A stretch of 32,000 bases of DNA from Candidatus Electronema halotolerans (GTDB taxonomy: Bacteria; Desulfobacterota; Desulfobulbia; Desulfobulbales; Desulfobulbaceae). Numbering within the stretch: the stretch's first letter is position 1; each line of letters begins with the position of its first letter. A program made the position numbers and the translations under genes. Shown piece after piece: positions 3,387-29,391 of this stretch. The notes under the pieces were generated by a model that saw nothing but the letters and a program-made list of their open reading frames with translations, was not told the DNA's origin and made no database searches. The stretch is taken from assembly GCA_942493095.1 (NCBI GenBank), contig OW818675.1:2220001-2252000 (forward strand), in the 5' to 3' direction.

Positions 3387-5165
3387 ATGTCTTCTGATAT
3401 ATCAAAAATTCTGATTGTTGACGACGACCTGCTCTTTGTCAACGATCTCTATGAACTGCTGAAAATCTACGATCAGTTCGACGTGCAGACCGCCACCAGC
3501 CGGGGCGAGGAGCTTTTCCTGCTCAAGCAGGAAAAAATCGCGGTGCTGGTGGTCAACCTGCAAACCTCCAGCTTAGACGGTCTGGAGGTGCTCTCGCTTG
3601 TCTCCACGTCGTACAGGCATATTCAGTGCATCGTCATGATCAATGACGGGCATCCTGCCCAGCTAAGAGCCTTGGAGAATTGCCCCTGCAAAGACTCCGT
3701 GTTCCGCTGCCTTGTCAAGCCTGACAATCTGGAGGTCATTGGTTGCGCTATTTTGGAAAGCCTGCAACGGCTGGATGAGAACGACTATCAGCCAGGCATC
3801 ACGGCCAACAAAATTGTCTCTTTTTTTGAAATTCTGCAACGAACCGCCAGAATTTCCGTCCGTTTCGGCACCAAAAAGCACGCCCTGCTCGACTTTCACA
3901 ACGGCCAGTTGATCAACTCGATCTGCGAGAAAAAACAAGGTATTGAGGCGGCCTTGGAGGTTTTTGACTGGCCGCCGCTCGGCTTTATTATTGAAAACGG
4001 GGAACCAGGCCTGGAGCGGACCATCCATCAGAAGGACCTTGAGACAATTCGGATCACCTCAAGATTGAAAAGGGAGGCTGCTCAACAAAAAAGCGGCGCA
4101 GGAGAAGAGGGGATGAGCAAGTCGGAGCAGAAGATCAGCCTGTTCATTGTTGACGACTCCAAAATGATGCGGAAAGTGATCGCCAGCATTTTCAAGGATG
4201 ATCCCTTTGTGCAGGTGGTCGGCGAGGCGGAGAACGGCGAGGAGGCGTTGCAGCTCATTCCCCAGCTTAAACCGGACGTGGTCACGCTGGATGTGGAAAT
4301 GCCAGTCATGGACGGTCTGACCACTATCAAGCATTTGATGATTCAGTCGCCCACCCCGACCGTGATGCTCAGTTCCATGACCCAGGACGGCGCGGCAGTC
4401 ACCTTTGACGCGCTTAAATATGGGGCCGTGGATTTTGTCGCCAAGCCCTCCCGCAATGCTTCGGTTGATCTGGCCGAACAGACAAGGGAAATTGCCCGCA
4501 AGGTGCATTTAGCCTCAGAAGTGGAGCTGGATGCGGTGCGCTATGTCCGGGCGGTGAACAAGGACAAGCAGGCTCGTTTTCCGTCCGGCACCCGCTGCGA
4601 AAAAATTGTCGCCATTGGCGCAGCAGAGGGCGGCTATGGCGCCATGCTCAAAATCCTGCCGCATCTTTCCCCTGAAATTCCTGCGGCCTATTTGGTCATG
4701 TTCTACGCCTCGTCCAAGCATCTGGATTCCTTTGTTGAATACATGGATCGCTTCTCGCCGCTGCGGATCCGGCGGGCGGCCAATAACATCCGCTTGGAGG
4801 CCGGGGTCTGTTATTTTGCCTCTGGCGAGGAATATCTGACCGTGCATGAACGGGAGGACGGCCTGATTCTGCATCTCTCCGCCGCTCCGTTCGCCACTCA
4901 GCGCGGCTCCATCAACATGCTCTTTTTTTCTGTGGCTGAGGTGATACGGGATGATGCGGTGGCGGTCATTCTTTCCGGCGTGGGCGAAGACGGCACCGAA
5001 GGCATGGCCGAAATTTTGCGGGTGGGCGGCGCAGGCATTGTCCAAGATCCCTCCGGCTGCCTGTACCGTGACATGCCGTGGTCGGTGTCAGCACATTGCC
5101 GGGAGGCCGCTGTGCTGCCGGACGGAGAAATATCGGACACCATCAACGGCATTCTGGCGGCATGA
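3387..5165 (+). CDS. Four-domain chemosensory protein: pseudo-receiver (Asp->Asn), PATAN/DUF4388-like module, receiver, and CheB-type methylesterase-like domain lacking the catalytic Ser and His
   Basis: 592-aa ORF.
- REC1 (aa ~6-125) has ILIVDDD and LVKP, but the phospho-acceptor position reads VLVVNLQ (Asn57, AAC at 3555-3557).
- aa ~135-205 (FFEILQ...LLDFHNGQLINS...QGIEAALEVFDWPPLGF) resemble PATAN/DUF4388.
- REC2 (aa ~248-355) is canonical: FIVDDS, DVVTLDVEMPVMDG, MLSS, DFVAKP.
- The C-terminal domain aligns with CheB, but IGASTGG becomes IGAAEGG and TQHMP becomes MFYAS. SGVGEDG keeps the Asp. Confidence 0.85.
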   Translation: MSSDISKILIVDDDLLFVNDLYELLKIYDQFDVQTATSRGEELFLLKQEKIAVLVVNLQTSSLDGLEVLSLVSTSYRHIQCIVMINDGHPAQLRALENCPCKDSVFRCLVKPDNLEVIGCAILESLQRLDENDYQPGITANKIVSFFEILQRTARISVRFGTKKHALLDFHNGQLINSICEKKQGIEAALEVFDWPPLGFIIENGEPGLERTIHQKDLETIRITSRLKREAAQQKSGAGEEGMSKSEQKISLFIVDDSKMMRKVIASIFKDDPFVQVVGEAENGEEALQLIPQLKPDVVTLDVEMPVMDGLTTIKHLMIQSPTPTVMLSSMTQDGAAVTFDALKYGAVDFVAKPSRNASVDLAEQTREIARKVHLASEVELDAVRYVRAVNKDKQARFPSGTRCEKIVAIGAAEGGYGAMLKILPHLSPEIPAAYLVMFYASSKHLDSFVEYMDRFSPLRIRRAANNIRLEAGVCYFASGEEYLTVHEREDGLILHLSAAPFATQRGSINMLFFSVAEVIRDDAVAVILSGVGEDGTEGMAEILRVGGAGIVQDPSGCLYRDMPWSVSAHCREAAVLPDGEISDTINGILAA

Positions 5166-5419
5166 TGCCTTGGTGATTGCCACACCCCTGCGCACAAATT
5201 CATGGCGGAAAAACGCATTCCCCGCAACAGCAGACTTGCGGAAAATCGAATATCTCAATATAAATAGAAGCAACGTAATTTTTTTTTAACAGGAGGCTGG
5301 AGAAACAACATGGACGTGCGGCTGAGAGGAGCTTCCTGCGGCGGACGCAGGCAGCAGACAAAGGGCGGGCCGGTCTGTCGGTCTGCGGTTTTGAAACAGA
5401 GATTGAAGGAGAGGCAAGC

Positions 5420-8400
5420 ATGAAAAGAACGCAGCGATTCACCACCACGGGCTGGGGACTCCGGGGAAAGCTGGTCGCCCTGCTCCTTGTCATTGGACTG
5501 CTCCCCTTCGCCATCAGCGCGTTGGTTTCCTACTATCAGTCCTCCAACGCGCTTGTCCAAGCCGCGCAGGAGAGGCTGGAGGCCCTCCGGCAGCTCAAAA
5601 AAAATCAGATTAACAGCTACCTGACCGAGCGTGCGAACGACATCAGCACCTTGGCGGAAATTGTCCATTCGCTCCGTGCTGACGCTATTGCCAAGAACAA
5701 CGCGCTCATGGCGACCAAGAGAGCCGCGCTTGAACGGTACTTTGGCAAGCGTTTTGCTGAGATTCAAGGCATCGCCGACAGTCCGACCACAGTCAGCGCC
5801 ATGCAGGAGTTCAACAGCACCTTCCATGAGGAGGGCGACCGGGTTGGCGGCAGCATGTGGAACGGCTACAAGGAGAAGTACGCGCCGTGGTACAATGTCT
5901 ATTTGGACAAGCATGGCTACCATGACGTGTATCTGATTGATTCGGACGGCAACATCGTCTTCACTGCCGCCGGACTGGCTGACTTGGGCCAGAACGTGCT
6001 CAGAGGCTCGCTCAAGGAGTCCGGTCTGGGCCGTCTCTTTGCCAAGGCCACGAAAGAGCCGATCTTGGAGGACTATACCTCGTATGCTCCGGCAGGCAAC
6101 AAGCAGGTCATGTTCGTTGGCGCGCCGGTCATGGCCGATGGCGCGGTCATCGGCGTGGCCGCCCTCCAGCTCTCCACGGCTGAGATCAACGGCATCGTGC
6201 AGGAGCGCGAGGGCATGCGTTCCTCGTTTGAGACCTTCCTCGTTGGTGACAAAGCCAATCCGACCCTGCGCAGTGACCGCGTGGTCAATGCAGGTAAAAT
6301 CGGCGATCCCAAAAACGATCCCAAAAACGACAAGGAGTCGTACGAAGTTCTGTCCGGCAAGAGCGGTGTTGAATACAAGGTCGGCCCGCAAGGCGAGTTC
6401 CAGATCGCGGTTTATGAACCGGTCAATCTGCCGGGCCTGAACTGGGGCCTGGTCACCACAGGCACCTTTGCTGAGGCGGTTGTGCCGCAGGCGGCAGGCG
6501 AGGCTGACGACCTGCTGACCAAGGTCATGAAGGCCTATAACTACTATGACATCTTCCTGATCGACCCGACTGGCTTCATTTTCTACTCTGGTAAAAAAGA
6601 GGCTGACTTTGAGACCAATATCATGACCGGCAAGTACAGCAGCAGCAACTTGGGCCGGATAATCAACAAAGTTGCCAGCACCAGAAAGCTCCAATTTGCC
6701 GACTTTGAGCGCTATGCCCCGTCAGACAACGCCCCTGCCTCCTTCATGGCCGGGCCGGTTCTTGACAAGGGCGAGCTGGTGGCCATCTTTGCCGTGCAGC
6801 TGCCGACCTCGGACATCAACGAGATCATGACTGAGGCCACTGGTCTGGGTGAGACGGGTGAGACTTATTTGGTCGGCCCGGACAAGGTACTCCGGTCTGA
6901 CTCCCGTCTGGTCACTGATGCCAAAATTCTGACCAAAGAGATTGACACGAAGGCAACCCAGGCTGCGTTGAATGAGCGCAAGAGCGGTGTTGACATGATC
7001 ACCGACTACCGGGGCAAGGAGGTTCTTTCCGCTTATGCGCCGCTGGATTTGAAAGATGTTGTTGGCGCGGATTTTGAGTGGGCCATCCTCGCTGAGGTTG
7101 ACACTGCCGAGGCTCTTGCCGCTGCCAACCGGATTCGTAACTACTCCATCATCGGTGCTCTTGTCATTGGTCTTGTCGTGGCCATGCTGGCGTGGTTCAT
7201 CGGTGGCGCATTTGCCGCGCCCATCGTCTCCATCGCCGAAGTTGTCCGGCAGGTTGCTGCGGAGCGGGATTTGACCCTTGAGGTGCCTGTCGCTTCGGGT
7301 GACGAGGTCGGGCAGATGGCTGCTGAGTTCAACGCCATGCTCGCCGAGTTGAACAAATCCTTCCGCGAGGTTGAGCAGGTGTCGCAGAGGGTTGCCCGCA
7401 ACGCTCAGGACGTGGCAGGCCGCGCTTCTGCCAACCGTGACCGTGCTGAGATCGAGGTGAAGCAGTCTGAGAAAACTCGTGAGCTGATTCAAACAATGGG
7501 TTCCACGGCGGCGCAGGTTGCTGACGGTGCCCGCGCCCAGCAGCAATCAGCCCAGAAATCCCAGCGCACCATTGCCGAGCTGCTCAGTTCGATGAACACA
7601 GTTAGCGCGGCGGTTATCAAGCAGTCTGAAGAGGCCGAGACTGCCACCGACCGTGTGGCCGCAATGGGTCAGACAGGTGCGATGGTTGTGGCGACCTCTG
7701 GTGAGCAGGGCAAGATGGTTATGCAGGTGACTGCCTCCATGAACGAGATCACCTCTGCTGTACGGAACATGGGCAAGGCGGTTGACGATGCCACCCAGCA
7801 GGGTCAGGAATCGCTCAAGGCCGCCAACCAGGGTCGTGTTGCGGTTGAAAACACAGTTGCTGGTATGCGCGCCATTGCTGACTCCTCCGGTCAGATTTCT
7901 GAAATCATCGGCGTTATCACCGAGATCGCGGAGCAGACCAACTTGCTGGCTCTGAACGCCGCGATTGAGGCCGCCCGTGCCGGCGCGCATGGTAAAGGTT
8001 TCGCGGTTGTTGCGGACGAGGTTGGTAAGCTGGCCCAGCGTTCCTCTGAAGCTGCCAAGGAGATCACCCAGCTGATCAAGGACTCCACGGCCAAGGTTGA
8101 GGAGGGTACTCGCTATTCCGAGGAACTTCAAGGCGCGCTGGCATTGATTGACTCCAGCGGTCGTAACAACATGAAGTCAATTGAGGAAATCGCCTCGGTT
8201 GCCCAGGTTGTGGAGCGGGATATTCAGAGTGTTCAGGGCTTGGTTCAGGAGCTGAACAAACTGGCCGAGCAGATCTCGAAAATGGCTGGTGAGCAGGGTG
8301 ACCGTCGTAAAGCTGCTGAGGGTGCTCTCTCGTCCATGGTGCAGCAGTCTCAGATCATCAGTGCGCTGGTTGCTGAAGCCACCGCAGGCTCGTCCGCGAT

Positions 8401-8620
8401 TGACGGCGAGATGCGCGAGATTGTGACCCGCACTGAAAAGCTGACCGAAATGGTCGCGGCCCAGCGGGAGCGTTCCGCCAACGCGACCAAGATTGCCCAG
8501 CAGTCGTTCGAGGGTGCGCAGAAAACGGTGGAAGGAGCTGGTGTGGTTGTGTCGATTACCGACGATCTGACAAGTGCTTCCGCAAGGCTGCGGGAGCAGG
8601 TTGAGCAGTTCAAGCTGTAA
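5420..8620 (+). CDS. Methyl-accepting chemotaxis protein with a ~540-aa duplicated Cache-like periplasmic region, a HAMP domain and an unusually long signalling domain
   Basis: 1066-aa ORF with a GAAGGAGAGG Shine-Dalgarno 5-6 nt upstream. TM1 is [19 protein letters not shown] and TM2 is [31 protein letters not shown] domain follows ([13 protein letters not shown]). The hairpin core [41 protein letters not shown] is highly conserved. There is no C-terminal NWETF-type pentapeptide; the protein ends EQVEQFKL. Confidence 0.93.
6305..6330 (+). repeat. Perfect in-frame 12-bp tandem duplication (GATCCCAAAAAC x2, plus GA) inside the MCP sensor region
   Basis: Read directly from the sequence: 6305-6316 equals 6317-6328. 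It encodes DPKNDPKND. Confidence 0.9.
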
Positions 8621-8636
8621 TCCGCCTGTCCGCCGC

Positions 8637-8680
8637 GCTCCGCGTCTGTCTGTTCCGGCAGGCGCGGAGCAGCATGTTTT
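8637..8680 (+). terminator. Weak hairpin / possible attenuating terminator after the MCP gene
   Basis: GCTCCGCG (8637-8644) pairs with CGCGGAGC (8663-8670) across an 18-nt loop. A TTTT tract at 8677-8680 lies 6 nt beyond the stem. The geometry is poor for an efficient intrinsic terminator. Confidence 0.25.
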
Positions 8681-8736
8681 CACTTGGTAAAAAACGTTAA
8701 ATTCTGCGGAATGCCGCGCAACAAGGAGACCAATTC

Positions 8737-9249
8737 ATGGCTGAAGGATTTGCAGCCGACAGGACAGCTGACCGGGAAGAAAAAGAACAGCTCATGCAGC
8801 TGGTCGGCTTCACCATCGGCAAGGAACAGTTTGGCGTTGACATACTCATGGTGCAGGAGATCATCCGCTCCGCTCCGATCACCTCAGTGCCCAATTCTCC
8901 AGACTTTATTGAAGGAGTCATCAACCTTCGCGGCAACATCATTCCGGTCATTGAGCTGCGCAAGCGGCTGGGGCTTTTTCGGAAGGAGAGCGCGACTAAG
9001 GATTCTTGGATTCTGATTCTCGACATTGATGGCCGGGTCACGGGCTTTATTGTCGATTCCGTGACCAAGGTTCTGAAAATTATGGAAAGCACAATTGAGC
9101 CGCCGCCCGAGGTGGTCATGGCCGGTCTGGCCAACCGCTACATCAAAGGCGTTTGCGATATTGGCAACGCCCTCCTCATCCTCCTTGATTTCAACCGGAT
9201 TCTGATGGCGGATGAATTACGGAAGCTCAGTTCAATCAGCGGAGAATAG
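8737..9249 (+). CDS. cheW: Chemotaxis coupling protein CheW
   Basis: 170-aa ORF with an AAGGAGA Shine-Dalgarno 7 nt upstream. FTIGKEQFGVDILMVQEIIR...VPNSPDFIEGVINLRGNIIPVIELRKRLG is the canonical CheW signature. Confidence 0.93.
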   Translation: MAEGFAADRTADREEKEQLMQLVGFTIGKEQFGVDILMVQEIIRSAPITSVPNSPDFIEGVINLRGNIIPVIELRKRLGLFRKESATKDSWILILDIDGRVTGFIVDSVTKVLKIMESTIEPPPEVVMAGLANRYIKGVCDIGNALLILLDFNRILMADELRKLSSISGE

Positions 9250-9255
9250 ATCAAG

Positions 9256-9621
9256 ATGAGCAAACGGGTTCTGGTTGTCGATGACTCTTCGATGATGCGC
9301 AAGATGATTGTCAAGCTGCTCCAGCCGCCAGGGCACATTGTCGTCGGGCAGGCCAAGAACGGCATCGAGGCCATCCAGCTCTACAAGGAGTTGAAGCCGG
9401 ATATTGTGACTATGGATATCACCATGCGCGACATGGACGGACTTGAGGCGGCCAAGGAGATTCTCCGCCACGACAAGGATGCCCATATCATCTTTCTCTC
9501 CAATTTGGATGAGGAGATTTACCGGGCTGAGGTGGAGAAGCTCGGCGCGCTCGGTTTTGCCAGCAAGCACAAGGCCAAAGAGATTCTGGAAATGATTGAG
9601 GAGGAGGACGGAAAGCACTGA
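9256..9621 (+). CDS. cheY: Single-domain response regulator, CheY-like
   Basis: 121-aa ORF with VLVVDDSSMMRK, DIVTMDITMRDMDG (phospho-acceptor Asp), IIFLS and FASKHK. It starts 6 nt after cheW. Confidence 0.9.
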   Translation: MSKRVLVVDDSSMMRKMIVKLLQPPGHIVVGQAKNGIEAIQLYKELKPDIVTMDITMRDMDGLEAAKEILRHDKDAHIIFLSNLDEEIYRAEVEKLGALGFASKHKAKEILEMIEEEDGKH

Positions 9622-9623
9622 GG

Positions 9624-10268
9624 ATGGATGGGGAGGAGCGGCTGCCGCCTCAGAACGGCGGCCCCGCGCATCTGAAGAAACCTTGTCACGGATTTTCGCC
9701 TATGTCCACCTTGTTCCGGGCGGCAGAGAGCCTGAGCCTGAAGACGAGGGCCTTTTTTTTCTATGGCCTGACCGTCCTGCTGACCCTGCTTGCCGCAGCC
9801 GGGGTTGTCTATGAACACGGCCTGACTCTGCTGCTGCTCGCACTGCTCATAGCTGTTCAGACTGCGGCCTTGTTTGTTTTTCATCATTATGTGCTCAAGC
9901 CGCTTGCCCATGTCCATGCCGCCACCCGGCAGATGACAGACGGCCATCTGGACATCTTGGCCCGCATCGCCCGGCAGGATGAGATAGGCCGTCTGGGAGA
10001 GAGCATCAATGATCTGGCAGTTAACATGCAGGAAGTGCTGCTTTTTGTCTGGAACCACAGTCAGCAGAGCCGCGAACTGTTCGACCAGACCGCTGAACGG
10101 CTGGCTGCGCCGGAGCCGCTGCCGACCATTCAGGATAATTTAAAAAAAATGCGCCAGAACAACGAAGATTTGAAGGCCATTGTCCTGTCCTTCAGTTATT
10201 TTGAGATCCGGCTGGAGCATGAACGGATGCTGGCCGAATCTGACTGCGGCAATGACGGACAGGGCTGA
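9624..10268 (+). CDS. Membrane protein with two TM helices and a HAMP domain but no recognisable output domain
   Basis: 214-aa ORF. TM helices are FFFYGLTVLLTLLAAAGVV and LTLLLLALLIAVQTAALFVF. A HAMP-like segment follows (LKPLAHVHAATRQMTDGHLDILARIARQDEIGRLGESINDLAVNMQE), then a ~80-aa helical tail. The start is uncertain: ATG 9624 lies 2 nt after the cheY stop, and the alternative is ATG 9702 (MSTLF...). Confidence 0.65.
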   Translation: MDGEERLPPQNGGPAHLKKPCHGFSPMSTLFRAAESLSLKTRAFFFYGLTVLLTLLAAAGVVYEHGLTLLLLALLIAVQTAALFVFHHYVLKPLAHVHAATRQMTDGHLDILARIARQDEIGRLGESINDLAVNMQEVLLFVWNHSQQSRELFDQTAERLAAPEPLPTIQDNLKKMRQNNEDLKAIVLSFSYFEIRLEHERMLAESDCGNDGQG

Positions 10269-10359
10269 AAAAAAAGAGAACGCAGCGCAGCAGCCAGCAA
10301 GAGTCGCGCCGGAGAGGCCGTAACAACTCGGATTGTCAAACTGTACCAGGGTGATCAAG

Positions 10360-13869: not shown

Positions 13870-13938
13870 GCAGGCGGCTTGCTGGTGAAGACGCAGGCTT
13901 CGCCTGTTCATCGCATGGAGGCTGAAAACAGGAGCGGC

Positions 13939-14970
13939 ATGGACAGAAAATATAAAGTTCTTGTGGTGGATGATGCCACCTTCATGACCAAGGCGATCAG
14001 CGATCTGCTGGAATCTGATCCTGAGATCGAAGTCATTGGCGTGGCGCGCAACGGTCTGGAAGGGCTGAAAAAAATCAAGGAGCTGCATCCTGATGTCATC
14101 ACGCTGGACATTGACATGCCAGTGATGGACGGACTACAGGCCATCCGGCACATCATGATCGAGTCGCCAGTGCCGATTGTGGTGCTCAGTTCTTTGTTCA
14201 GTGACGGCTCCATCACCTTTGAAGCCCTGCGGCTGGGCGTGGTTGATTTTGTCGCCAAGCCTTCCGGGGCCATATCAAGCGACATTCATGTGGCCAAGCA
14301 GCAGATTGTCGGCAGGATCAAATTAGCCACTGCGGTCAATTTTCAAAACATCCGCCGGGTGCGGGTCAAACCGCAGCCGCAGCAGGCAGGAGAAAAGGAA
14401 AATTCCAGCTTCAGCTCCATGCTGGTCATTGGCACCTCGCTCACCGGGCCGAATTCCTTTATTCGGCTGATGACCCGGCTGGAGGCGGGCCTTTCCGCCG
14501 CCGCCGTGATCATGCTGGAGATTTCGCCCAAGATTCTCCATGCCTTTGTTGAACGCTTCAATGAGTTCACAAGCTGGAAAATTGCTGTGGCCGAGCATGA
14601 CAAAATTCTCAAGCGGGGAGTCTGTTATATTCAGTCCAACCTGCATTCGCTGACAGTGGCGTTCAACGAATACGGCGATCCCTGCTTCAAAACCGGCGCG
14701 CCGACAACCAATCCCTTGGACACCTTGTTTGTTTCCGCTGCCGAGATATTTGCTGAAAAAACCGTCGGGGTGCTGCTGACCGGGTACGGTGATGACGGCT
14801 CTGAGGGCTTTGCCGCCATTCAGGCCAAAGGCGGTACCACCATTGTCCAAAGCGTGGAGAGCTGCATCTATCCGAATCTGGCGGCAATGGCCATTCAACG
14901 CAAGCTGGTGGACATGGCTGTGGAAGAGGACAAACTTGCTGAAGCCATCAGTTCAGTCATAAAAAAATAA
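13939..14970 (+). CDS. REC-CheB-type protein with the catalytic His replaced (His190-equivalent is Glu)
   Basis: The ORF track opens at TTG 13879. ATG 13939 (MDRKYKVLVVDD) has a CAGGAG motif 4 nt upstream. The receiver is canonical (DVITLDIDMPVMDG, VVLSS, DFVAKP). In the esterase domain, IGTSLTG retains the Ser, TQHMPPGF is MLEISPKI, and TGYGDDG keeps the Asp. Confidence 0.85.
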   Translation: MDRKYKVLVVDDATFMTKAISDLLESDPEIEVIGVARNGLEGLKKIKELHPDVITLDIDMPVMDGLQAIRHIMIESPVPIVVLSSLFSDGSITFEALRLGVVDFVAKPSGAISSDIHVAKQQIVGRIKLATAVNFQNIRRVRVKPQPQQAGEKENSSFSSMLVIGTSLTGPNSFIRLMTRLEAGLSAAAVIMLEISPKILHAFVERFNEFTSWKIAVAEHDKILKRGVCYIQSNLHSLTVAFNEYGDPCFKTGAPTTNPLDTLFVSAAEIFAEKTVGVLLTGYGDDGSEGFAAIQAKGGTTIVQSVESCIYPNLAAMAIQRKLVDMAVEEDKLAEAISSVIKK

Positions 14971-15012
14971 ACAGCTTCCGAACATGCCGGGCAGGCGGCA
15001 GGAAACAAGATC

Positions 15013-15927
15013 ATGATCATCACATGTGAACAGTGCAAGACCAGATACAAGCTCGCTGACAGCATGCTGGACAAACCGGAGCTGAAGGTGCGCTGTCATA
15101 AATGCGGCTTCCGCTTCACCGTGCAGCGTCCTGCTTTGGCTGAAGAGTCGATTCTGCTCCAAGATGAGCTGCATCCTGACTACAGCCGGATCATTGCGGT
15201 CAGCAATCAGAAGGGCGGAGTGGCCAAGACCACCACCTGTCTCAATCTTGGCGCGGCCTTTGCCAAAATGGGCAAAAAGGTCCTGCTGATTGACTTTGAC
15301 GTGCAGGCCAATCTGACCGTTCTCCTCGGCCTGCGCGGCGTGAAAACCTTTTACGATGTCTTGAGCGGCGGTGTCAAAAAAATTGGCGAGGCTGTGGTGC
15401 GGACCAAATATCCCAACATTTCCCTGCTGCCCTCCAGCAGCAGAATGGCTCTGCTGAAAAAACAGTATCTCAGCCAGCACAACTTTGAATACCTGCTCCG
15501 CGACCGGCTGAAAAGCATCCAGGACAACTATGACCATATTTTGATCGATACGCCGCCCTCGATTGAATTTTTCACCCTCAACGCCTTGGTGGCCGCCAAC
15601 TTAGTCATCATCCCAACCACCTGCGAGTATCTCTCCATGCACGGAGTCAGTCAGGTGCATGACATCATCAAAGTGCTGAAGAAACGAGTCAACCAGGACG
15701 TGGAATGCAAGGTGCTGATCACCATGCGCAACTCCAAAAGCACCTCGGAAAAGGTGATTTACGGCAAGCTGCGCCAGACCTGCGGCGACAGTCTCTTCAG
15801 AAGCGTGATTGATGCGGATGACCAGATGCAGGAATCCCATATTGTCAATGCCCCGCTCAGTTATTACGCGGAAAACAGCCGGGCGGCCAAGCAGTACATG
15901 CAGCTTGCTGAGGAAATTGCCGGATGA
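15013..15927 (+). CDS. ParA/MinD-family P-loop ATPase with an N-terminal MJ0042-type CxxC...CxxC zinc ribbon
   Basis: 304-aa ORF. The N-terminus MIITCEQCKTRYKL...VRCHKCGFRFTV is a zinc ribbon. It is followed by the deviant Walker A IIAVSNQKGGVAKTTT, then VLLIDFDVQANLT and ILIDTPPS. Confidence 0.85.
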   Translation: MIITCEQCKTRYKLADSMLDKPELKVRCHKCGFRFTVQRPALAEESILLQDELHPDYSRIIAVSNQKGGVAKTTTCLNLGAAFAKMGKKVLLIDFDVQANLTVLLGLRGVKTFYDVLSGGVKKIGEAVVRTKYPNISLLPSSSRMALLKKQYLSQHNFEYLLRDRLKSIQDNYDHILIDTPPSIEFFTLNALVAANLVIIPTTCEYLSMHGVSQVHDIIKVLKKRVNQDVECKVLITMRNSKSTSEKVIYGKLRQTCGDSLFRSVIDADDQMQESHIVNAPLSYYAENSRAAKQYMQLAEEIAG

Positions 15928-16688
15928 GCGCGCTTGCTGAAAAAATCGCCCCCTTTCTCTCCTTTACTGTTCTGATCATTGCCTGGGAGCTGGCGGTCCG
16001 TCTCGGCGGCCTGAACACCAATTCCCTGCCCAGCCCCAGTCAGGTTTTTCTCAGCATGATTGAGCTGATCCGCAACGGAGCCATTTTCAAGCACACCGTG
16101 GCCAGTCTCTTCCGGGTCACTGCCGGATTTTATTTGTCCGCCCTACTCGGCATTCCCATCGGCATCATTCTTGGCCGAAGTCAGACCTTGGCCATGCTCT
16201 TCAATCCGATCATTCATTTTCTCCGGCCCATTTCTCCGCTGGCATGGATTCCTTTAGCCATGCTCTGGTTCGGCATCGGCGATCAGCCAGCCATTTTTCT
16301 CATCTTTCTGTCCAGCTTTTTTCCGATTGTGGTCTCCACTGCCGTGGCCGTGCAGTCCATCAATCCGACCTATTTTCATGTGGCTGCCAACTTTGACTTC
16401 AGCCGGACCGAGGTGATTGCAAAAATTGTCATTCCAGCAATTGTTCCCGACATCATCACTGCCCTCCGTCTGACCGTGACCATTTCTTGGATCGTGGTGG
16501 TGGCGGCGGAAATGATCGCGGTGCAGTCCGGGCTGGGCTATTTGATTCTTGATGCCCGCAACGGCCTGCGCATGGATTATGTCTTGGACGGCATGATTGT
16601 CATCGGCCTGATCGGCATTTTTCTTGATGCCATCATGCGGCGGCTGGGCCAGATTGATTCCGCCTCCTGGGGCATCCGCCAGATGTGA
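15924..16688 (+). CDS. ABC transporter permease, NitT/TauT (nitrate/sulfonate/taurine/bicarbonate) family
   Basis: 254-aa polytopic ORF of SsuC/TauC/NrtB type (six predicted TM helices, ...VVVAAEMIAVQSGLGYLILDA...). The start overlaps the parA-like stop (ATGA). Confidence 0.8.
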   Translation: MSALAEKIAPFLSFTVLIIAWELAVRLGGLNTNSLPSPSQVFLSMIELIRNGAIFKHTVASLFRVTAGFYLSALLGIPIGIILGRSQTLAMLFNPIIHFLRPISPLAWIPLAMLWFGIGDQPAIFLIFLSSFFPIVVSTAVAVQSINPTYFHVAANFDFSRTEVIAKIVIPAIVPDIITALRLTVTISWIVVVAAEMIAVQSGLGYLILDARNGLRMDYVLDGMIVIGLIGIFLDAIMRRLGQIDSASWGIRQM

Positions 16689-16699
16689 AGGAAAGCATA

Positions 16700-17494
16700 A
16701 TGGGACATATTCAAATATCAGGCCTGAACAAGGACTTTGTCAATCGCCGCCACACCAAGCGCGACGATGACCCGGCCCATTTTGGCCAAGTGGTGCCGGT
16801 GCTGGAGGACATCAACATTGAGATTGAGGACGGCGAGATGGTCTGCTTCCTCGGTCCCTCTGGCTGCGGCAAATCCACCCTGATGCGCATTGTCGCGGGC
16901 TTTGACCGGCAAAGCTCCGGTTCGGTCAAGATTGACGGCCAGGAAATCACCGGCCCCAGCTCAGACAACATCTTTGTTTTTCAGCACAGCGGCCTGCTGC
17001 CGTGGATGACAGTCTGGCAGAATGTGGAGCTGGGTCTGCGCAATATGGAGGACAAAAACGAGCAGTGCGAAAAAATTCAGGAATACATCGAAATGGTTGA
17101 GCTGGAAGGCTTTGAGGATCACTATCCGCATCAGCTTTCCGGCGGCATGCTGCGCCGGGCCGAGCTGGCCCGCGCCTTGGTGGTCAACCCGGACATCCTG
17201 ATCATGGACGAGCCGTTCAGCGGCCTCGACTTCCTCACCCACATGAAGCTGCGCGAGGAAGTGGTCAACATGCACCAGTTTCTTGGCAAGACCATTCTTG
17301 TTGTCACCCACGACATTGACGATGCCTTGGTCATGGGCGACCGAATTATTGTCTTCAGCCGCAGACCCTCGCAGATCAAGATGAACCGCAAGCTCGACTT
17401 TCCCCATCCGCGCAATTTCTTCAAGAAGAATCACGGATTAGCCAAACTGCGGGATGAGCTGTTCTTCATGCTGGGAGTGAACTATGCGGTTTAA
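16700..17494 (+). CDS. ABC transporter ATP-binding protein, NitT/TauT family
   Basis: Walker A is GPSGCGKST, the signature is LSGGMLRRAELARAL, Walker B is ILIMDEPFSGLD, and the H-loop is VTHD. ATG 16700 is preceded by AAGGAAAG. The ORF track opens at GTG 16685, overlapping the permease stop. Confidence 0.9.
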   Translation: MGHIQISGLNKDFVNRRHTKRDDDPAHFGQVVPVLEDINIEIEDGEMVCFLGPSGCGKSTLMRIVAGFDRQSSGSVKIDGQEITGPSSDNIFVFQHSGLLPWMTVWQNVELGLRNMEDKNEQCEKIQEYIEMVELEGFEDHYPHQLSGGMLRRAELARALVVNPDILIMDEPFSGLDFLTHMKLREEVVNMHQFLGKTILVVTHDIDDALVMGDRIIVFSRRPSQIKMNRKLDFPHPRNFFKKNHGLAKLRDELFFMLGVNYAV

Positions 17495-18587
17495 GCAGAA
17501 ATTGCTCCTCGGCTGGCTGAAGAGAATTGCTACGCTTTACAGGCTGGCGCTGACTTCTTGGCGAAAACTGGCCCAAGGCTGGCGGCTGACAGTCGGCGCA
17601 GTCGTCTGGCTGATCCTGATCTCAGTGCTTCATTTCTGGCTCAATTTTGATCACGGCAGCCGCCAGATTGTCGCAATGGGCTACATGCCGGTCATCACCA
17701 ATATGGCAGCCCCGCTTTTAGACTATGTGAGCAAGGACAAAGGCGATATTTATTTTAAAGCCCTCAAGTTCAGCGCCTTTGCCGAAATGGCCGAGGCCCT
17801 GCGCAATGACGAGATTCAGGCCGCCTTCATCATTGCCCCGCTCTCCATCGTGCTCCGGCAGCAGGGCGAGGATGTGAAGGTGGTCTATATCGGCAACCGC
17901 CATGAAAGCTCCTTGGTGGCGAGAAAAAGCCTCCACATCAGCAGTGAGTCCAGCGTGGCCGGCAAACTGCGCGGCCTGATCGGCAAAACCGTGGCTGTGC
18001 CCATGCGTTTTTCCGGCCATAACCTCAGTCTGCGGGAGCTGATGGACAAATATGGTCTGACTGGCCAGATCAACATTGTGGAGATGAATCCGCCGGACAT
18101 GGCTTCAGCCTTGGCCAGCAAATCTGATCTGGCTGCCTACTATGTCGGCGAGCCATTCGCCTCCAAAACGTTGAAGAACGATCTTTCTGACTTGGTCTTT
18201 CATGTGGAGGAGGTCTGGCCTTCGTTCATCTGCAATTTAGTCCTTGTCAAACAGAGCACCATTGACCGGGACCCGGAGGCAGTGCGGCGGCTGGTGGAGG
18301 GAGCGGCCCGCTCCGGCCTCTGGGCGGAAACGCATCAGGATCAGGCGGCGGCAATATCGGCCCAATACTGGTCGCAGCCTGCGGACTTGGTGAAATATGC
18401 GCTTCAGGGGAGAAAAGTGATTTTTGATCAATATCTTCCCAAAGAGAAAGAGATGCAGGAAATTGCCGACCTGATGGTCAAGCATGGCCTGATTGAGGAC
18501 AACAGGATTGACGGGCTGGTTGACGCTCACTTTGCCGCTGCGGTGAAAAAGGAGCCTGTTGACAGCTTGGATGCTATTTTGCCGTAA
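17484..18587 (+). CDS. ABC transporter substrate-binding protein (NMT1/SsuA/NrtA-like) with an uncleaved N-terminal membrane anchor
   Basis: 367-aa ORF with a TM anchor (VGAVVWLILISVLHFWL). It then reads VAMGYMPVITNMAAPLL...FAEMAEALRNDEIQAAFIIAPL, typical of NitT/TauT-family binding proteins. It overlaps the ATPase gene by 11 nt. Confidence 0.72.
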   Translation: MRFKQKLLLGWLKRIATLYRLALTSWRKLAQGWRLTVGAVVWLILISVLHFWLNFDHGSRQIVAMGYMPVITNMAAPLLDYVSKDKGDIYFKALKFSAFAEMAEALRNDEIQAAFIIAPLSIVLRQQGEDVKVVYIGNRHESSLVARKSLHISSESSVAGKLRGLIGKTVAVPMRFSGHNLSLRELMDKYGLTGQINIVEMNPPDMASALASKSDLAAYYVGEPFASKTLKNDLSDLVFHVEEVWPSFICNLVLVKQSTIDRDPEAVRRLVEGAARSGLWAETHQDQAAAISAQYWSQPADLVKYALQGRKVIFDQYLPKEKEMQEIADLMVKHGLIEDNRIDGLVDAHFAAAVKKEPVDSLDAILP

Positions 18588-18604
18588 CAAAAGGAAGATG
18601 GACT

Positions 18605-19027
18605 ATGACCGCTGTGAAAACGGAAAACAGACGCAAAGCTCCCAGACTTGAACGGCAGGCAGCCCTGCTCGTCACCAAGCTCCAGTATCCCATGACCAAT
18701 CTGGAGGCCAAGCCCGCAGTCACGAAAAATCTGGCTGAACACGGCCTCTGCTTCACGGCTGGCGAGCTGTATGAGCCAGGAGCGATCCTCCAGCTTGCCA
18801 TTGACCTGCGCGGCTGGCAGCAGTATCTGAACAATATTATTGCGGTGCTCGACACCGGCTCGGTGTCCAAACCGCTGACCGCCATTGCCGAGGTGATCTG
18901 GGCCCAGCAGCTCCAAGACAAGGAGCAGTACGAGATTGGAGTCCGTTTCAAGGATATTTACGAAGACGATTTGAAAGCCTTTAAACAATATTTGACCAAG
19001 CTGTTCAGTCAGCAGGAGCAGGACTGA
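18605..19027 (+). CDS. PilZ-domain protein (putative c-di-GMP receptor)
   Basis: 140-aa ORF. It has an RxxxR motif (RRKAPR) near the N-terminus. About 30 residues later comes N-L-A-E-H-G, which fits [D/N]-x-[S/A]-x-x-G. The C-terminal YEIGVRFKDI is typical of PilZ barrels. Confidence 0.65.
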   Translation: MTAVKTENRRKAPRLERQAALLVTKLQYPMTNLEAKPAVTKNLAEHGLCFTAGELYEPGAILQLAIDLRGWQQYLNNIIAVLDTGSVSKPLTAIAEVIWAQQLQDKEQYEIGVRFKDIYEDDLKAFKQYLTKLFSQQEQD

Positions 19028-19040
19028 CAGACTGAGCAGC

Positions 19041-19577
19041 ATGAATTTCCTTCCCAAAAGCGGCCTGCAGCGCCAGATGGGGTTTTATATTCTTTTCATC
19101 GGCATTGTCTTCCTGACCATGGCCGTGGAAATGGAACGCTTTCTTCGCGGCGACGAGGTGCTGGGCCTGCTTCAAGAACAGATGGGCAGCAGGCCGGCGC
19201 TGGAGCTGGTGGGGCTGATTCTGCTCAAAGTCCGGGTGATGGCGAGCATTCTTCTCTTGGCCATTGGTCTGGTGATGATGCTCTTCATCAAGCGGATACT
19301 TTTTCCCTTGGAGCAGATCATCGAGCGGACACGGGCGATGAGCGCAGGTGACTTTTCCGTGGCCCTGCCTGAAGAGAGCAAAGACGAGCTGGGCGAGCTG
19401 GCCCGGCATATCAATGATCTGAACGCCAATGAGCAGGAGCTGATCCTGTTGGTGAAAAACATGGCCGAGCAGCTCCGTCTGACCTTGGCGAAAGGCGACG
19501 TTGATGAGGCTATGGAGCTGCTCAACGAGCTGGACGAGACACTGGCTGAATTTGGCAGGAGCTTTTATCGGTGCTGA
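19041..19577 (+). CDS. Second membrane protein with two TM helices and a HAMP domain, no output domain (paralogue of 9624..10268)
   Basis: 178-aa ORF with TM helices FYILFIGIVFLTMAV and ILLLAIGLVMMLFI. The HAMP segment is LFPLEQIIERTRAMSAGDFSVALPEESKDELGELARHINDLNANEQE. It shares the pattern L-x-PL...TR-x-M-x-x-G...DE-x-G-x-L...INDL-x-x-N-x-QE with the 9624 protein. Confidence 0.68.
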   Translation: MNFLPKSGLQRQMGFYILFIGIVFLTMAVEMERFLRGDEVLGLLQEQMGSRPALELVGLILLKVRVMASILLLAIGLVMMLFIKRILFPLEQIIERTRAMSAGDFSVALPEESKDELGELARHINDLNANEQELILLVKNMAEQLRLTLAKGDVDEAMELLNELDETLAEFGRSFYRC

Positions 19578-20335
19578 TTGCGCAGATGAACTGGCTGATG
19601 CTGCCGGTCGGCATAGGCATCGCCGCAGTGGCCATGTTTTTCGGCTTGGGCGGCGGGGTACTCTGGATGCCGGTGCTGCTCACCTTCACATCTCTCCAGC
19701 CTGAGGAGGCGGTCATTTGCACCATAGTCATTCAAATGTTCGGACAGATGAGCGCCTCGGTCAGCAACAGCCGGGCCGGACTGGTGAACTGGCCGTTAGT
19801 CAGAATGATGGCCTTGGTCGGCCTGCCCTGTGTCGGCGCAGGGGTGCTGCTTTCCGCTGTCCTCCACCCAGTCTGGATCAAACTCTTCTTGGGCTTGGTG
19901 ATTTTTTTCATTGCTTATGCTTTTCTGCGGGGCGATGATTTTTTTGTCCAAGGTTCAGATCAGCCTGACTTGCAGGCCGCCCGGCAGGGCCGTCCGCTGG
20001 CGGCAATGGGCAGTGTGCTGACCGGATTTCTTGGGGTGGGCGTGGGCGACTGGCTGGTGCCTTTTTTCAACATGCGCTGCGGCCTGTCCATGAGCCGGTC
20101 TGTGGCCACCTGCATCGTCCTGATGCTGGTGCTTTCCACAGCTGCCTTGCTTGCCCATCTGCTGCTGGGCCGCAGCATTCCTTGGCCAGTGGCTCTGCCC
20201 GGCATCATCGGTGTGCTGCTCGGCGCGCAGCTTGGCGCGCGGCTGCTGCATCAGGTCCCGGAAACCCGTTTCAAAGAATTTTTTGTCCTCATGCTGGTGT
20301 TCATCGCCGCCCATGTCACCTTCAATGCCCTGTAG
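19571..20335 (+). CDS. TauE/SafE-family (DUF81) anion permease
   Basis: 254-aa polytopic ORF with the glycine-rich FFGLGGGVLWMPVLL and a second-half repeat (TGFLGVGVGDWLVP). The GTG start overlaps the previous stop (GTGCTGA). The alternative start is ATG 19586. Confidence 0.78.
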   Translation: MLIAQMNWLMLPVGIGIAAVAMFFGLGGGVLWMPVLLTFTSLQPEEAVICTIVIQMFGQMSASVSNSRAGLVNWPLVRMMALVGLPCVGAGVLLSAVLHPVWIKLFLGLVIFFIAYAFLRGDDFFVQGSDQPDLQAARQGRPLAAMGSVLTGFLGVGVGDWLVPFFNMRCGLSMSRSVATCIVLMLVLSTAALLAHLLLGRSIPWPVALPGIIGVLLGAQLGARLLHQVPETRFKEFFVLMLVFIAAHVTFNAL

Positions 20336-20347
20336 CTGCAAGCCACG

Positions 20348-21739
20348 ATGAAAAACTCCGCCGCCAACGGCTTTGTTGGTGAAATAGAAGGATTGAGCTT
20401 GGTGGATTTGGTCCAGTTCGCCTGCCTGTCCGGGGACGACCGCAAGTTGAGCGTTCTCAGCAGCGATGACAACTTGGGAGTGCTCTATTTTTCCGACAAC
20501 GAGATTGTCCATGCCGAATTCGGCGAGCTGACCGGCGAGGAGGCCTTTTTCCGCATCATGAGCTGGCCTTCCGGCACCTTCAGCATGCTCTTTGACCAGA
20601 CCGACCAGCGCACTATAGATTCCTCATGGAATTTTCTGCTCTTGGAAGCGGCCCGCCGTCTTGATGAGCAGCAGAAGAAAATCGCTCCCACGGAAGAAGA
20701 GAAAAAGAATATCCTGCCCAAAGTGCTGGTGGTGGATGATTCCCGTTTTTTCACCAAGGCCTTTGTCAAGCTCTTTGAAGATCAGATCAAGGCCAAGGTC
20801 GTGGGCACAGCCACTAATGGCAAGGAAGCCCTAAAGTTTTTGGAAATGCAGGTCCCTGATTTGGTCACGCTGGACATGAACATGCCGGTGATGAGCGGTG
20901 ATGCCGCCTTGAAGCACATCATGATCCGCTCGCCAGCACCAGTGGTGCTTCTCAGCAATTTCAGCGATGAGCATTCCTTCAGGATGATTGACTTCATGCG
21001 CTACGGGGCCGTGGATGTGGTGGCCAAGCCGGTCAATCCTGAATCATGGAATATGATAGGCCGCCGCCTTCAGTACATTCTCAGGAATGTCGGCGAACTC
21101 CGCTTTGACAATCTCAGCCGGGCTAAAAATCTCAAGCCGGCAGAGAGCAAAATCACCCCGGTCAAAGCGGCATCAAGGCTGATTCTGATTTTAAGCGGCT
21201 TGGGCGGCATGCTGGAACTGCAAAAGATCATTCCCGCCTTGGAGCCGGATGAGACAACAGCAGTGGTGGTGCTGCAAAATATGTATCCAGGCATGGCAAA
21301 ACACTTGGCCACCTATTTCAACAGCTTCACCGCCTACGCCGTGAGCAGGATCGCCTTGGGCGATGAGCTGCTCGGCGGGCAGTGCCGGATCGGCAACTGT
21401 CATGGCAGGCAGCAGTTCAGTCTTCATCACGGGGTGCCGATGCTCTCCGGCGAGGAGGATGAATTCCATCACAAGCCTTTGGACACAGACAACCTCCTGC
21501 ATTCCGCCGCTGAGGTCTTCAATGCCGAACTGACCCTGATTCTTCTCAGCGGGGTGGATGTTGATTTGAAGCTCGGCATGGAGGCTGTAAAAAACAAGGG
21601 CGGCAAAATCATCCTTCAAGACCCTGAATCAAGCCTGCTGCCCGGCCCGCTGGAGGGCTTGAAAACCTTGGCCCTGGAGGAATGCTGCCTCAAGCCGGAG
21701 GACATTGCCTCCTATCTGGCCGCCAAACAGCAGTCATGA
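20348..21739 (+). CDS. PATAN/DUF4388 - receiver - CheB-like protein with a degenerate catalytic triad
   Basis: 463-aa ORF.
- The N-terminus GLSLVDLVQF...GVLYFSDNEIVHAEFGELTGEEAFFRIMSWPSGTFSM fits the PATAN/DUF4388 signature.
- The receiver is canonical: VLVVDDS, DLVTLDMNMPVMSG, VLLSN, DVVAKP.
- The C-terminal domain is colinear with CheB, but ASTGG becomes SGLGG, QHMPPG becomes QNMYPG, and TGMGNDG becomes SGVDVDL. Confidence 0.85.
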   Translation: MKNSAANGFVGEIEGLSLVDLVQFACLSGDDRKLSVLSSDDNLGVLYFSDNEIVHAEFGELTGEEAFFRIMSWPSGTFSMLFDQTDQRTIDSSWNFLLLEAARRLDEQQKKIAPTEEEKKNILPKVLVVDDSRFFTKAFVKLFEDQIKAKVVGTATNGKEALKFLEMQVPDLVTLDMNMPVMSGDAALKHIMIRSPAPVVLLSNFSDEHSFRMIDFMRYGAVDVVAKPVNPESWNMIGRRLQYILRNVGELRFDNLSRAKNLKPAESKITPVKAASRLILILSGLGGMLELQKIIPALEPDETTAVVVLQNMYPGMAKHLATYFNSFTAYAVSRIALGDELLGGQCRIGNCHGRQQFSLHHGVPMLSGEEDEFHHKPLDTDNLLHSAAEVFNAELTLILLSGVDVDLKLGMEAVKNKGGKIILQDPESSLLPGPLEGLKTLALEECCLKPEDIASYLAAKQQS

Positions 21740-21909: not shown

Positions 21910-22862
21910 ATGAAAGATCAGCTTTATTACGGGGACAATCTCAAGATTCTGCGGGAATACATCCGGGATGAGAGCGTTGATCTGATTTATCTTGATCCGC
22001 CTTTCAACTCAAACCGCAGCTACAATGTCCTGTTCAAAGATGAAAGCGGGCAAGATTCCGAGGCCCAGCTCACCGCTTTTGAGGACACGTGGCATTGGGA
22101 TTTGGCTGCCGCTGCGGTGTATGAGAAGATCGTCACCAGCGCGCCGCCGCACGTGGCTTCCATGATCGGCGCATTGCGCGAATTCATCGGCACCAATCAG
22201 GTGACAGCCTACATCGTCATGATGACCGCCCGCCTGCTGGAACTGCACCGCGTTCTCAAACCGACCGGCAGTCTGTATTTGCATTGCGACCCAACAGCAA
22301 GCCATTATTTGAAAATTGTCTTGGATTCTATTTTCGGAATGCAGAACTTTCGCAACGAATTTGTTTGGAAACGTTCGTCAGCGCACAGTGATGCCAAACA
22401 AGGTTCAAAGCAGGGCGGAAGAATTCATGATACTATCTTTTTCTATACCAAAGGAAAAGAATGGACATGGAATCCGATCTATACCAAATATGATGACAAT
22501 TATATTAAGAAGAATTACAGATACACAGACAAGAAAAGCGGAAGAAAATTCTGCATAGATAATTTGACAGCAGCCAAGCCGGGTGGTGATACCAGCTATG
22601 AATGGCGCGTTAAACGAAAAAAAGACGGTAAAGCAAGCTGGGAAGCAGATTTAACTGAAGAGTATCTTTCTCAGAAGGAAGATTGGGAATACAAAGGAGT
22701 TCCTCCTTATAAAAAGAGATTTTGGGCATATTCTCAGAAAAACATGAGGGAATTTTCCAAGCAAGATAGACTGTATTATTCTGATTCAGGAATGCCACGC
22801 TATAAACGGTATCTTGATGAAATGCCCGGTGTGCCTTTGCAAGATTTATGGACAGATATTTC
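21910..22862 (+). pseudogene. DNA methyltransferase (N6-adenine/N4-cytosine, beta class), 5' fragment interrupted by an IS
   Basis: YYGDNLKILREYIRDESVDLIYLDPPFNSNRSYN contains the catalytic motif IV (DPPF). The reading frame runs into the IS left end, where a TAA stop is supplied by the IS (GTAAC...). Confidence 0.85.
22855..22862. repeat. Target-site duplication, left copy (GATATTTC)
   Basis: It is identical to 24349-24356 and immediately abuts the IS terminal inverted repeat. Confidence 0.9.
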
Positions 22863-24348: not shown

Positions 24349-24356
24349 GATATTTC
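24349..24356. repeat. Target-site duplication, right copy (GATATTTC)
   Basis: It is identical to 22855-22862. Confidence 0.9.
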
Positions 24357-28819: not shown

Positions 28820-28831
28820 GCTTCTTCCTCC

Positions 28832-29389: not shown

Positions 29390-29391
29390 TC

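Follow-up and report, generated by a model that had tools for sequence, protein, structure and literature searches.

Several described chemosensory systems can be set beside the gene cluster considered here, which occupies positions 3387-21739 of a 32,000-nucleotide stretch of Candidatus Electronema halotolerans DNA (GenBank assembly GCA_942493095.1, contig OW818675.1, positions 2,220,001 to 2,252,000 of the forward strand; the whole of this stretch is called the window below) and which encodes three CheB-like response regulators together with a chemoreceptor, CheW, CheY and CheA. The Frz system of Myxococcus retains an active CheB/CheR pair (FrzG and FrzF), and an active pair is also present in the Wsp system of Pseudomonas, which has a REC-GGDEF output (REC, receiver domain) and no transporter. 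ParA-like ATPases of chemotaxis operons are known from Vibrio (ParC) and Rhodobacter (PpfA), and the CheA of pilus-class systems typically has several histidine phosphotransfer (Hpt)-type domains and a C-terminal receiver. Canonical CheB, represented by the structures from Salmonella (1A2O) and Pectobacterium (6YMZ), couples a receiver to the CheB fold and its Ser164-His190-Asp286 triad. The cyanobacterial Tax/Pix systems, which serve non-flagellar surface motility, are built on a core of methyl-accepting chemotaxis protein (MCP), CheW and CheA, and use a CheY-like and a PATAN-bearing regulator with neither CheR nor any CheB-like domain. It has been reported that cyanobacterial PatA-type systems lack CheB and CheR, that the PATAN output domain binds PilB1 in Synechocystis and that PatA-type regulators also bind PilC (bioRxiv 10.1101/2021.06.11.447907). 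Electronema and Electrothrix belong to the cable bacteria, within the Desulfobulbaceae; gliding and oxygen chemotaxis are described for cable bacteria (PMC7873302, PMC12163305), and pili are suspected to take part in their motility.

Compared with these systems, the parts of the window cluster are known and their combination is new: three conserved families of CheB-derived proteins that lack the canonical triad, fusions with PATAN, the absence of a linked CheR, and a transporter encoded with the che core. The MCP-CheW-CheA core, the CheY-like and PATAN-bearing regulators and the lack of a linked CheR are shared with Tax/Pix, from which the cluster differs in that PATAN-REC is fused to a degenerate CheB, that three CheB-derived proteins are present, that CheA has no C-terminal receiver, that an ATP-binding cassette (ABC) transporter, TauE, ParA, PilZ and HAMP-only proteins are encoded within the cluster, and that the cable-bacterium loci have no neighbouring pil gene. 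With canonical CheB the three regulators, numbered CheB-1 to CheB-3 by gene order, share the receiver and CheB fold, the receiver active site and Asp286, whereas the triad is incomplete in all three, their scores fall below the NCBIfam cut-off, no CheR is linked, and PATAN and pseudo-receiver modules have been added. As with ParC and PpfA, a deviant-Walker-A ParA/MinD-type ATPase lies inside the che cluster, but it bears an MJ0042-type zinc ribbon, sits between CheB-2 and the ABC transporter, and was seen with no ParP-like partner. Myxococcus Frz, with MglA/MglB, comes likewise from a gliding member of the former Deltaproteobacteria, and in distant relatives the cluster adjoins an MglB-like gene, a small Ras-like GTPase gene and a PilB-like ATPase gene; the window, however, has no MglA/MglB pair and the domain architectures differ. 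The likeness to Wsp lies in the Che-like core, the atypical regulator outputs and the links to cyclic diguanylate (c-di-GMP), through PilZ here and through GGDEF in the metagenomic protein P0114. No description of this cluster or of degenerate CheB families was found in the searchable literature; the cable-bacterium genome paper of Kjeldsen et al. (PNAS, 2019) is said to mention a chemotaxis operon. On balance, we lean towards the reading that the cluster encodes a methylation-independent chemosensory pathway of a cable-bacterium relative, with PATAN-type outputs to pilus-based gliding.

Triad residues were read from phmmer alignments to the CheB structures 1a2o and 6ymz and from a MAFFT alignment with Salmonella CheB as the ruler, and in no window protein are Ser, His and Asp found together (motifs around positions 164, 190 and 286 are given in that order):

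3387..5165, plus strand: CheB-1, 592 aa; Pfam layout REC-(PATAN-like)-REC-CheB_methylest; Ser164 replaced by Ala and His190 by Tyr, Asp286 kept (IGAAEGG / FYASS / GEDG).
13939..14970, plus strand: CheB-2, 343 aa; Pfam layout REC-CheB_methylest; Ser164 kept, His190 replaced by Glu, Asp286 kept (IGTSLTG / LEISP / GDDG).
20348..21739, plus strand: CheB-3, 463 aa; Pfam layout DUF4388(PATAN)-REC-CheB_methylest; Ser164 replaced by Gly and His190 by Asn, Asp286 kept (LSGLGG / LQNMYP / VDVDL).

The triad calls that the initial annotation had made by eye for the three proteins were reproduced exactly by both kinds of alignment. It had also credited each protein with a receiver that keeps the phospho-acceptor Asp, and full active sites were found: equivalents of Salmonella CheB D10, D11, D56, S83 and K107 are present in the receivers of all three and in CheY. 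The additional N-terminal receiver of CheB-1 is a pseudo-receiver, with Asn at the Asp56 position; it is followed by a PATAN-like segment (residues ~137-215), the true receiver (250-358) and the CheB-like domain (405-588). CheB-3 is divided into PATAN (11-108), receiver (126-232) and CheB-like domain (279-456). The CheB_methylest profile (PF01339) scores 128, 122 and 78 bits on the window proteins, and all three fall below the 293-bit cut-off of the NCBIfam CheB subfamily NF001965 (CheB-1, 283; CheB-2, 252; CheB-3, 166 bits). For CheB-3, an AlphaFold2 model with a mean pLDDT (predicted local distance difference test) of 85.5 is best matched in Foldseek by full-length CheB (6ymz and 1a2o, E ~1e-25, template modelling score 0.81; 3sft also matches), from which it follows that the CheB fold is intact; the fold of CheB-1 and CheB-2 was judged from their sequences. 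The plural PATAN modules of the initial annotation stand for CheB-3, where PF14332 reaches 57.5 bits (cut-off 25) and lies N-terminal to the receiver, and stand less firmly for CheB-1, in which no Pfam match was obtained and an hhalign comparison of profiles gave a weak match (E=0.0011, probability 20%). Pfam PatA_N was nevertheless found in CheB-1 homologues of 37-41% identity, including that of locus L010.

The same residue states recur through the protein families, which were surveyed as the best 120 matches each for CheB-1 and CheB-2 and, for CheB-3, as 97 homologues with the PATAN-REC-CheB-like layout or truncated forms of it. In the CheB-3 family both Ser164 (Gly in 96, Ala in 1) and His190 (Asn in cable bacteria, mostly Asp or Gln in distant members) are absent from 97/97 proteins; canonical CheBs lower in the same match list retain S/H/D. 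The CheB-1 family, which includes many short REC-CheB-like proteins of Desulfobacterota, has lost Ser in 100 of its best 120 matches (97 Ala, 3 Gly), and its triads read A/Y/D in 75, A/H/D in 22, S/Y/D in 17, G/Y/D in 3 and an intact S/H/D in 3; this spread suggests that an active ancestor lost its triad step by step. CheB-2 follows another pattern: Ser occupies position 164 in 64 of its best 120 matches and Thr in the other 56, position 190 holds Glu in 101 and Asp in 19 but never His (0/120), and position 286 is always Asp (120), so that [S/T]-[E/D]-D is found in 120/120. As the site is invariant but for conservative swaps, it appears to be still in use and not a relic, and CheB-2 may be a re-tooled enzyme or a ligand-binding domain rather than a dead enzyme. 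Rough dN/dS values (ratio of nonsynonymous to synonymous substitution rates) of ~0.06-0.10 for the esterase-like domains against two Electronema species, against which dS is saturated, indicate purifying selection, and in a neighbour-joining tree of these domains, built with no bootstrap, each family falls into a clade of its own, apart from canonical CheB. The CheB-like proteins represent three old and separate families. The earlier view of all three as pseudoenzymes has to be divided accordingly: it is supported for CheB-1 and CheB-3, where the nucleophile is lost family-wide and where the CheB fold and purifying selection fit a pseudoenzyme or adaptor role, but it is premature for CheB-2 with its constrained site. 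Genome annotation at present labels all three proteins 'CheB', and with such labels counts of adaptation enzymes and the classification of chemotaxis in these organisms would go wrong. Protein P0114, of 531 aa, was also encountered; it joins a receiver and a CheB-like domain with a Thr/Glu/Asp triad to GGDEF, which indicates that the CheB-2-type domain is also used upstream of c-di-GMP synthesis.

The methylation partner of CheB was sought with a CheR profile made from 11 CheR genes that adjoin canonical CheBs in control loci (four of these checked with Pfam), which was run on six-frame translations of the system loci, that is, the window and 19 others (348 kb). None of the 20 system loci matched in any of the six frames, even at E<=10, whereas 26/73 control loci did, including 25/32 loci with a full-length canonical CheB; taking non-redundant loci, CheR linkage is 0/15 in the system against 25/32 for canonical CheB (Fisher p = 2e-7). 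No related locus that was looked at has a linked CheR. The initial annotation had seen no CheR, CheD, CheC, CheX or CheZ in the window, and this was borne out, as Pfam also matched none of these families (CheR, CheD, CheC/X or CheZ) among 35 scanned reading frames, which comprise all long plus-strand genes of the window and three minus-strand genes at 27842-31668. On the receptor side, a consensus scan of the MCP found no match to [ASTG][ASTG]xx[EQ][EQ]xx[ASTG][ASTG]. The methylation-like site ARAQQQSA noted previously does lie where it was placed (residues 704-711, nt 7529-7552), but it fails the strict consensus and is not conserved in distant orthologues, the aligned equivalents being AKAQQESA in Ca. 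Electronema aureum, SLAQKEAA in L010 and AESSAALA in L007. The hairpin-tip motif of the MCP begins at residue 841, ~209 residues from the C-terminus, which reads VEQFKL; the pentapeptide tether is absent.

It has to be considered whether classical adaptation has been kept, with CheB-2 as an active esterase or deamidase that works through Ser/Thr-Glu/Asp-Asp, an unlinked CheR that methylates the MCP, and CheB-1 and CheB-3 as non-catalytic partners. The conservative character of the swaps at the CheB-2 site throughout its 120 relatives speaks for such a cycle, as do the retention of Asp286 in all three window proteins, the functional Ser-Glu-Asp triads of sedolisin peptidases, and the reach of the CheR evidence, which covers loci rather than the whole genome. 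We nonetheless judge this reading unlikely, since CheR within 10 kb accompanies none of the 15 non-redundant system loci and 25 of the 32 canonical ones, the MCP has no consensus methylation site and its single candidate is unconserved, the receptor offers no C-terminal tether for CheR or CheB, and neither a Thr nucleophile nor a carboxylate base has a known precedent in CheB. It partly overlaps the methylation-independent reading, as does the transporter-centred explanation taken up below.

The three regulators belong to a unit of 15 genes, two fewer than the 17 first counted, in which all reading frames are intact and all genes lie on the plus strand, in agreement with the single direction already described. 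The other members are as follows:

5420..8620, plus strand: MCP, 1066 aa, dCache-HAMP-MCPsignal by Pfam.
8637..8670, plus strand: hairpin, from a pattern scan only.
8737..9249, plus strand: CheW, Pfam CheW at 128 bits.
9256..9621, plus strand: CheY-like single-domain receiver, by Pfam and receiver residues.
9624..10268, plus strand: HAMP-only membrane protein 1, 214 aa, Pfam HAMP.
10333/10360..13869, plus strand: CheA, by Pfam; the open reading frame opens with TTG at 10333, the likely start being ATG 10360.
15013..15927, plus strand: Zn-ribbon ParA, Pfam AAA_31 and Zn_ribbon_4/5.
15924..16688, plus strand: ABC permease of the NitT/TauT type, Pfam BPD_transp_1.
16685..17494, plus strand: ABC ATPase, Pfam ABC_tran and NCBIfam.
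17484..18587, plus strand: substrate-binding protein, NMT1_2/SsuA-like, by Pfam.
18605..19027, plus strand: divergent PilZ protein, Pfam PilZ at 32.7 bits against a cut-off of 22.5.
19041..19577, plus strand: HAMP-only membrane protein 2, 178 aa, Pfam HAMP.
19571..20335, plus strand: TauE/SafE-family anion permease, Pfam TauE at 145 bits.

From cheW through CheB-3 the intergenic distances lie between -11 and 69 nt, and four junctions overlap: the three reported before (15924/15927, 17484/17494 and 19571/19577) are real and a fourth lies at 16685/16688. Gaps had been described as mostly under 120 bp; all are indeed <=116 nt, except for the 254 nt that separate CheB-1 from the MCP gene on its 5' side, the gap on the 3' side of the MCP gene being 116 nt. 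In this second gap, 17 nt past the MCP stop codon, the pattern scan placed the hairpin at 8637-8670, with 14 pairs (10 of them G-C) and a T-rich tail; it was the one notable result of promoter and terminator scans that consist of consensus matches, and it could possibly be a terminator or attenuator that splits the MCP from a cheW-to-CheB-3 transcription unit. An Rfam scan of the window gave no RNA family.

The MCP-CheW-CheY-CheA core had been described as functional in appearance, and all four of its parts are present, including the P1 His and kinase boxes of CheA and the MCP hairpin tip. CheA begins with a P1 Hpt domain that carries the His (SAHTIKG), continues with two Hpt-like repeats without it and ends with the dimerisation, kinase (DDGRGI, GRGVGMD) and CheW-like domains; neither Pfam nor the sequence reveals a recognisable P2 domain or a C-terminal receiver. 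The repeats, at residues ~175-290 and 395-500 (Pfam E=0.15 and 4e-5), read LKSSANYMG and ASSANYMEY where the phospho-accepting His is missing, and the linkers between the Hpt-like repeats are long, acidic and proline-rich. The start at ATG 10360 rests also on the gene call in locus L001. CheY has a complete receiver active site, and its best NCBIfam match is a CheB receiver (86 bits) and not a CheY model, so that all four receivers of the system may share a CheB-type origin. HAMP-only protein 1 has two hydrophobic helices that are joined almost without a loop, followed by a HAMP domain and a helical tail, and its orthologues hold the same position in L008, L010, L036 and L092.

Among named organisms, Candidatus Electronema has the closest homologues of CheB-1, CheB-2 and CheB-3 (72-82% identity), followed by Candidatus Electrothrix (64-78%); exact copies were met solely on short metagenome contigs, which points to an uncultured source. 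Ca. Electronema aureum (L008), whose genome is closed, has an identical gene order throughout, apart from a transposase-like gene between CheB-1 and the MCP; its flanking genes are different, and the limits of the unit can be recognised from this. The extra gene (L008 11784-12356) encodes a 190-aa Y1-transposase-like protein; the corresponding place in the window is the 254-nt gap. Among the matches listed, Ca. Electronema nielsenii and an Electrothrix genome have the downstream half in the same order. At ~40% identity, L010 encodes a PATAN-REC-CheB-like protein, a REC-PATAN-REC-CheB-like protein, MCP, CheW, CheY, a HAMP protein, CheA and CheB-2, with CZB in place of dCache as the MCP sensor. 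The cultured Desulfatitalea alkaliphila (L036) has a CheB-1-like protein, CheW, CheY, CheA, CheB-3, CheB-2, ParA, a HAMP protein, TauE and the ABC permease, and its CheB-1-like protein (L036 2960-4264) was seen to bear an N-terminal MJ0042-type zinc ribbon, as the window ParA does. Partial gene sets occur in Desulfonema magnum (L009; CheB-2, ParA, CheB-1 and the ABC trio, where neither CheA nor an MCP lies within 10 kb) and in L015-L017. Outside the Desulfobacterota, near-complete sets are present in a Competibacteraceae genome (Gammaproteobacteria, L091), which encodes a CheB-1-like protein, MCP, CheW, CheY, CheA, CheB-2, the ABC trio and PilZ, and in the metagenome locus L092, which repeats the order with the zinc-ribbon ParA included. 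The MCP of L091 (2592-5835) is called as four genes (dCache, unknown, HAMP and MCPsignal), which frameshifts or assembly errors may explain. A compact variant consisting of HDOD, three CheB-like genes, CheY and CheA was found in L006, L007, L013 and L014; in L006, L007 and L014 it adjoins a Roadblock/MglB-like gene, a small Ras-like GTPase gene and a gene for a TPR-MshEN-T2SSE (PilB-like) ATPase, the last of which is also adjacent in L015.

The gene order therefore recurs in other genomes and is not a chance juxtaposition, and the ParA, PilZ, HAMP and transporter genes, which the initial annotation had treated as embedded in the cluster, turn out to be conserved in two orders of Desulfobacterota and in one family of Gammaproteobacteria. 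Such recurrence in distant genomes makes the transporter, ParA, HAMP, TauE and PilZ genes members of the system and not passengers; a chance joining of transporter and che genes was rejected, as their linkage recurs across phyla. ParA, whose position between CheB-2 and the transporter is conserved, combines the N-terminal MJ0042-type zinc ribbon (NCBIfam MJ0042_CXXC) with a deviant Walker A motif, KGGVAKTT, and scores 181 bits with Pfam AAA_31; in NCBIfam its zinc ribbon is also matched to the N-terminal part of GltJ, a gliding protein. The ABC trio is assigned at the level of the NitT/TauT family by Pfam, all NCBIfam equivalogs (SaoP/SaoA, NtrB, TauC, SsuA) being below their cut-offs: this applies to the best permease matches (SaoP, NtrB, TauC and SsuC) and to the binding protein, which reaches 97 bits with SsuA_fam and has an N-terminal hydrophobic anchor. 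In the PilZ protein RxxxR is present (RKAPR), and in the second motif, NLAEHG, Ala replaces the Ser of (D/N)xSxxG.

This conservation lends itself to another explanation, a pathway unconnected with movement whose output or input would be the NitT/TauT-type ABC transporter with TauE, taking up or exporting for instance a sulfur, nitrogen or carbon anion, and in which the CheB-like regulators would either target the transporter or signal its condition. In Desulfobulbales, Desulfobacterales and Competibacteraceae CheB-2 is found together with the ABC trio of permease, ATPase and binding protein, in some cases with ParA as well, the linkage holds even in Desulfonema magnum away from CheA and MCP, TauE and HAMP-only proteins recur in Desulfatitalea, and the REC-CheB-like-GGDEF protein P0114 places such a domain upstream of non-motility outputs. 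The PATAN domains and the MglA/MglB/PilB-like neighbours in relatives indicate motility instead, taxis is a necessity for cable bacteria and no other chemosensory cluster was seen in the analysis, and no direct link between a CheB-like domain and an ABC transporter is known; we therefore hold a transporter-centred pathway to be improbable. The decay of a flagellar chemotaxis operon after the loss of flagella, with dead CheB copies in the course of being lost, might be suspected from the loss of triad residues in all three copies, the insertion sequence just downstream and the transposase-like gene inside the Ca. Electronema aureum cluster, but it is rejected as highly implausible on the 15/15 intact reading frames, dN/dS far under 1 in the esterase-like domains, substitutions that are fixed in relatives down to 35-40% identity, and a gene order retained across orders and in a second phylum.

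In the favoured methylation-independent pathway, the dCache chemoreceptor and CheW would control CheA, which would hand phosphate to four receivers, those of CheY and of the three CheB-derived response regulators. By analogy with the PatA-type regulators, CheB-3 clearly, and CheB-1 probably, would bear a PATAN output directed at a type IV pilus or gliding machinery, and the esterase-like domains of these two proteins would serve in receptor docking or in the regulation of the PATAN output, not in demethylation. Adaptation would then take place outside the CheR/CheB methylation cycle, more likely through competition of the receivers for phosphate or through CheB-2, whose Ser/Thr-Glu/Asp-Asp site may catalyse an altered reaction or serve in ligand binding. 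Placement of the receptor array is the probable task of the Zn-ribbon ParA. A transport-linked or c-di-GMP signal could reach the pathway from the ABC transporter, TauE, the HAMP-only proteins and PilZ, or these could be under its control, with the transporter as co-sensor or second output and PilZ as a c-di-GMP input. The non-flagellar output proposed in the initial annotation fits the kinship with gliding cable bacteria, the binding of PATAN to the pilus motor in Synechocystis, and the MglA/MglB-like and PilB-like neighbours of distant relatives. Proteins with a cyclic-nucleotide-binding domain and PATAN were also observed just upstream of the cluster in L008 (4444-6719) and L036 (1205-2719), and are absent from the window; they hint at a second PATAN input, dependent on cyclic nucleotide monophosphates, to the same target.

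Several observations weigh against this pathway. No pilus or gliding gene was found in the window or beside the cluster in Ca. Electronema aureum, the window CheA has a single true Hpt and lacks the C-terminal receiver typical of the pilus class, and the PATAN match of CheB-1 is weak. The [S/T]-[E/D]-D site that is conserved in CheB-2 could still allow deamidation or demethylation of the receptor, and a cheR gene may lie elsewhere in the genome. The tight linkage of the ABC transporter across phyla is unexplained by a pure motility role, and the system is present in Competibacteraceae, for which we know of no gliding evidence to report. Cable formation by the window organism is itself deduced from the 72-82% identity to named Electronema proteins.

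More tentatively, the cluster may represent a new class of chemosensory pathway, found in cable bacteria, other Desulfobacterota and some Gammaproteobacteria, in which three CheB-derived regulators (two of them non-catalytic and receptor-docking with PATAN outputs, one with a Ser/Thr-acid-Asp site) would replace the CheR/CheB memory, the ABC transporter would be hard-wired to the pathway, and oxygen and sulfide fronts would be found by its means; we regard this wider proposal as possible and somewhat doubtful. By gliding and taxis, cable bacteria maintain contact with oxygen at one end and with sulfide at the other, and the cluster is the obvious candidate basis for this behaviour. On at least three occasions the CheB fold has been put to a use other than that of the textbook demethylase, and a chemosensory core travels with a transporter across phyla.

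On both sides the cluster is flanked by housekeeping genes. The 5' flank consists of rmlD, a semialdehyde dehydrogenase gene and truA; on the 3' side, an insertion sequence splits a gene for a DNA methyltransferase, beyond which lie glmM-like and transporter genes. The split gene encodes a fusion of an N6/N4 DNA methyltransferase with an Mrr-like nuclease, and its pieces lie at 21910-22866 and 24337-25140. The interrupting element belongs to the IS66 family and measures 1486 bp (element 22863-24348, region 22855-24356), with one transposase gene (22956-24326) and 17-nt imperfect terminal inverted repeats. Its 8-bp target duplication, GATATTTC, is intact, which suggests that the insertion is recent.

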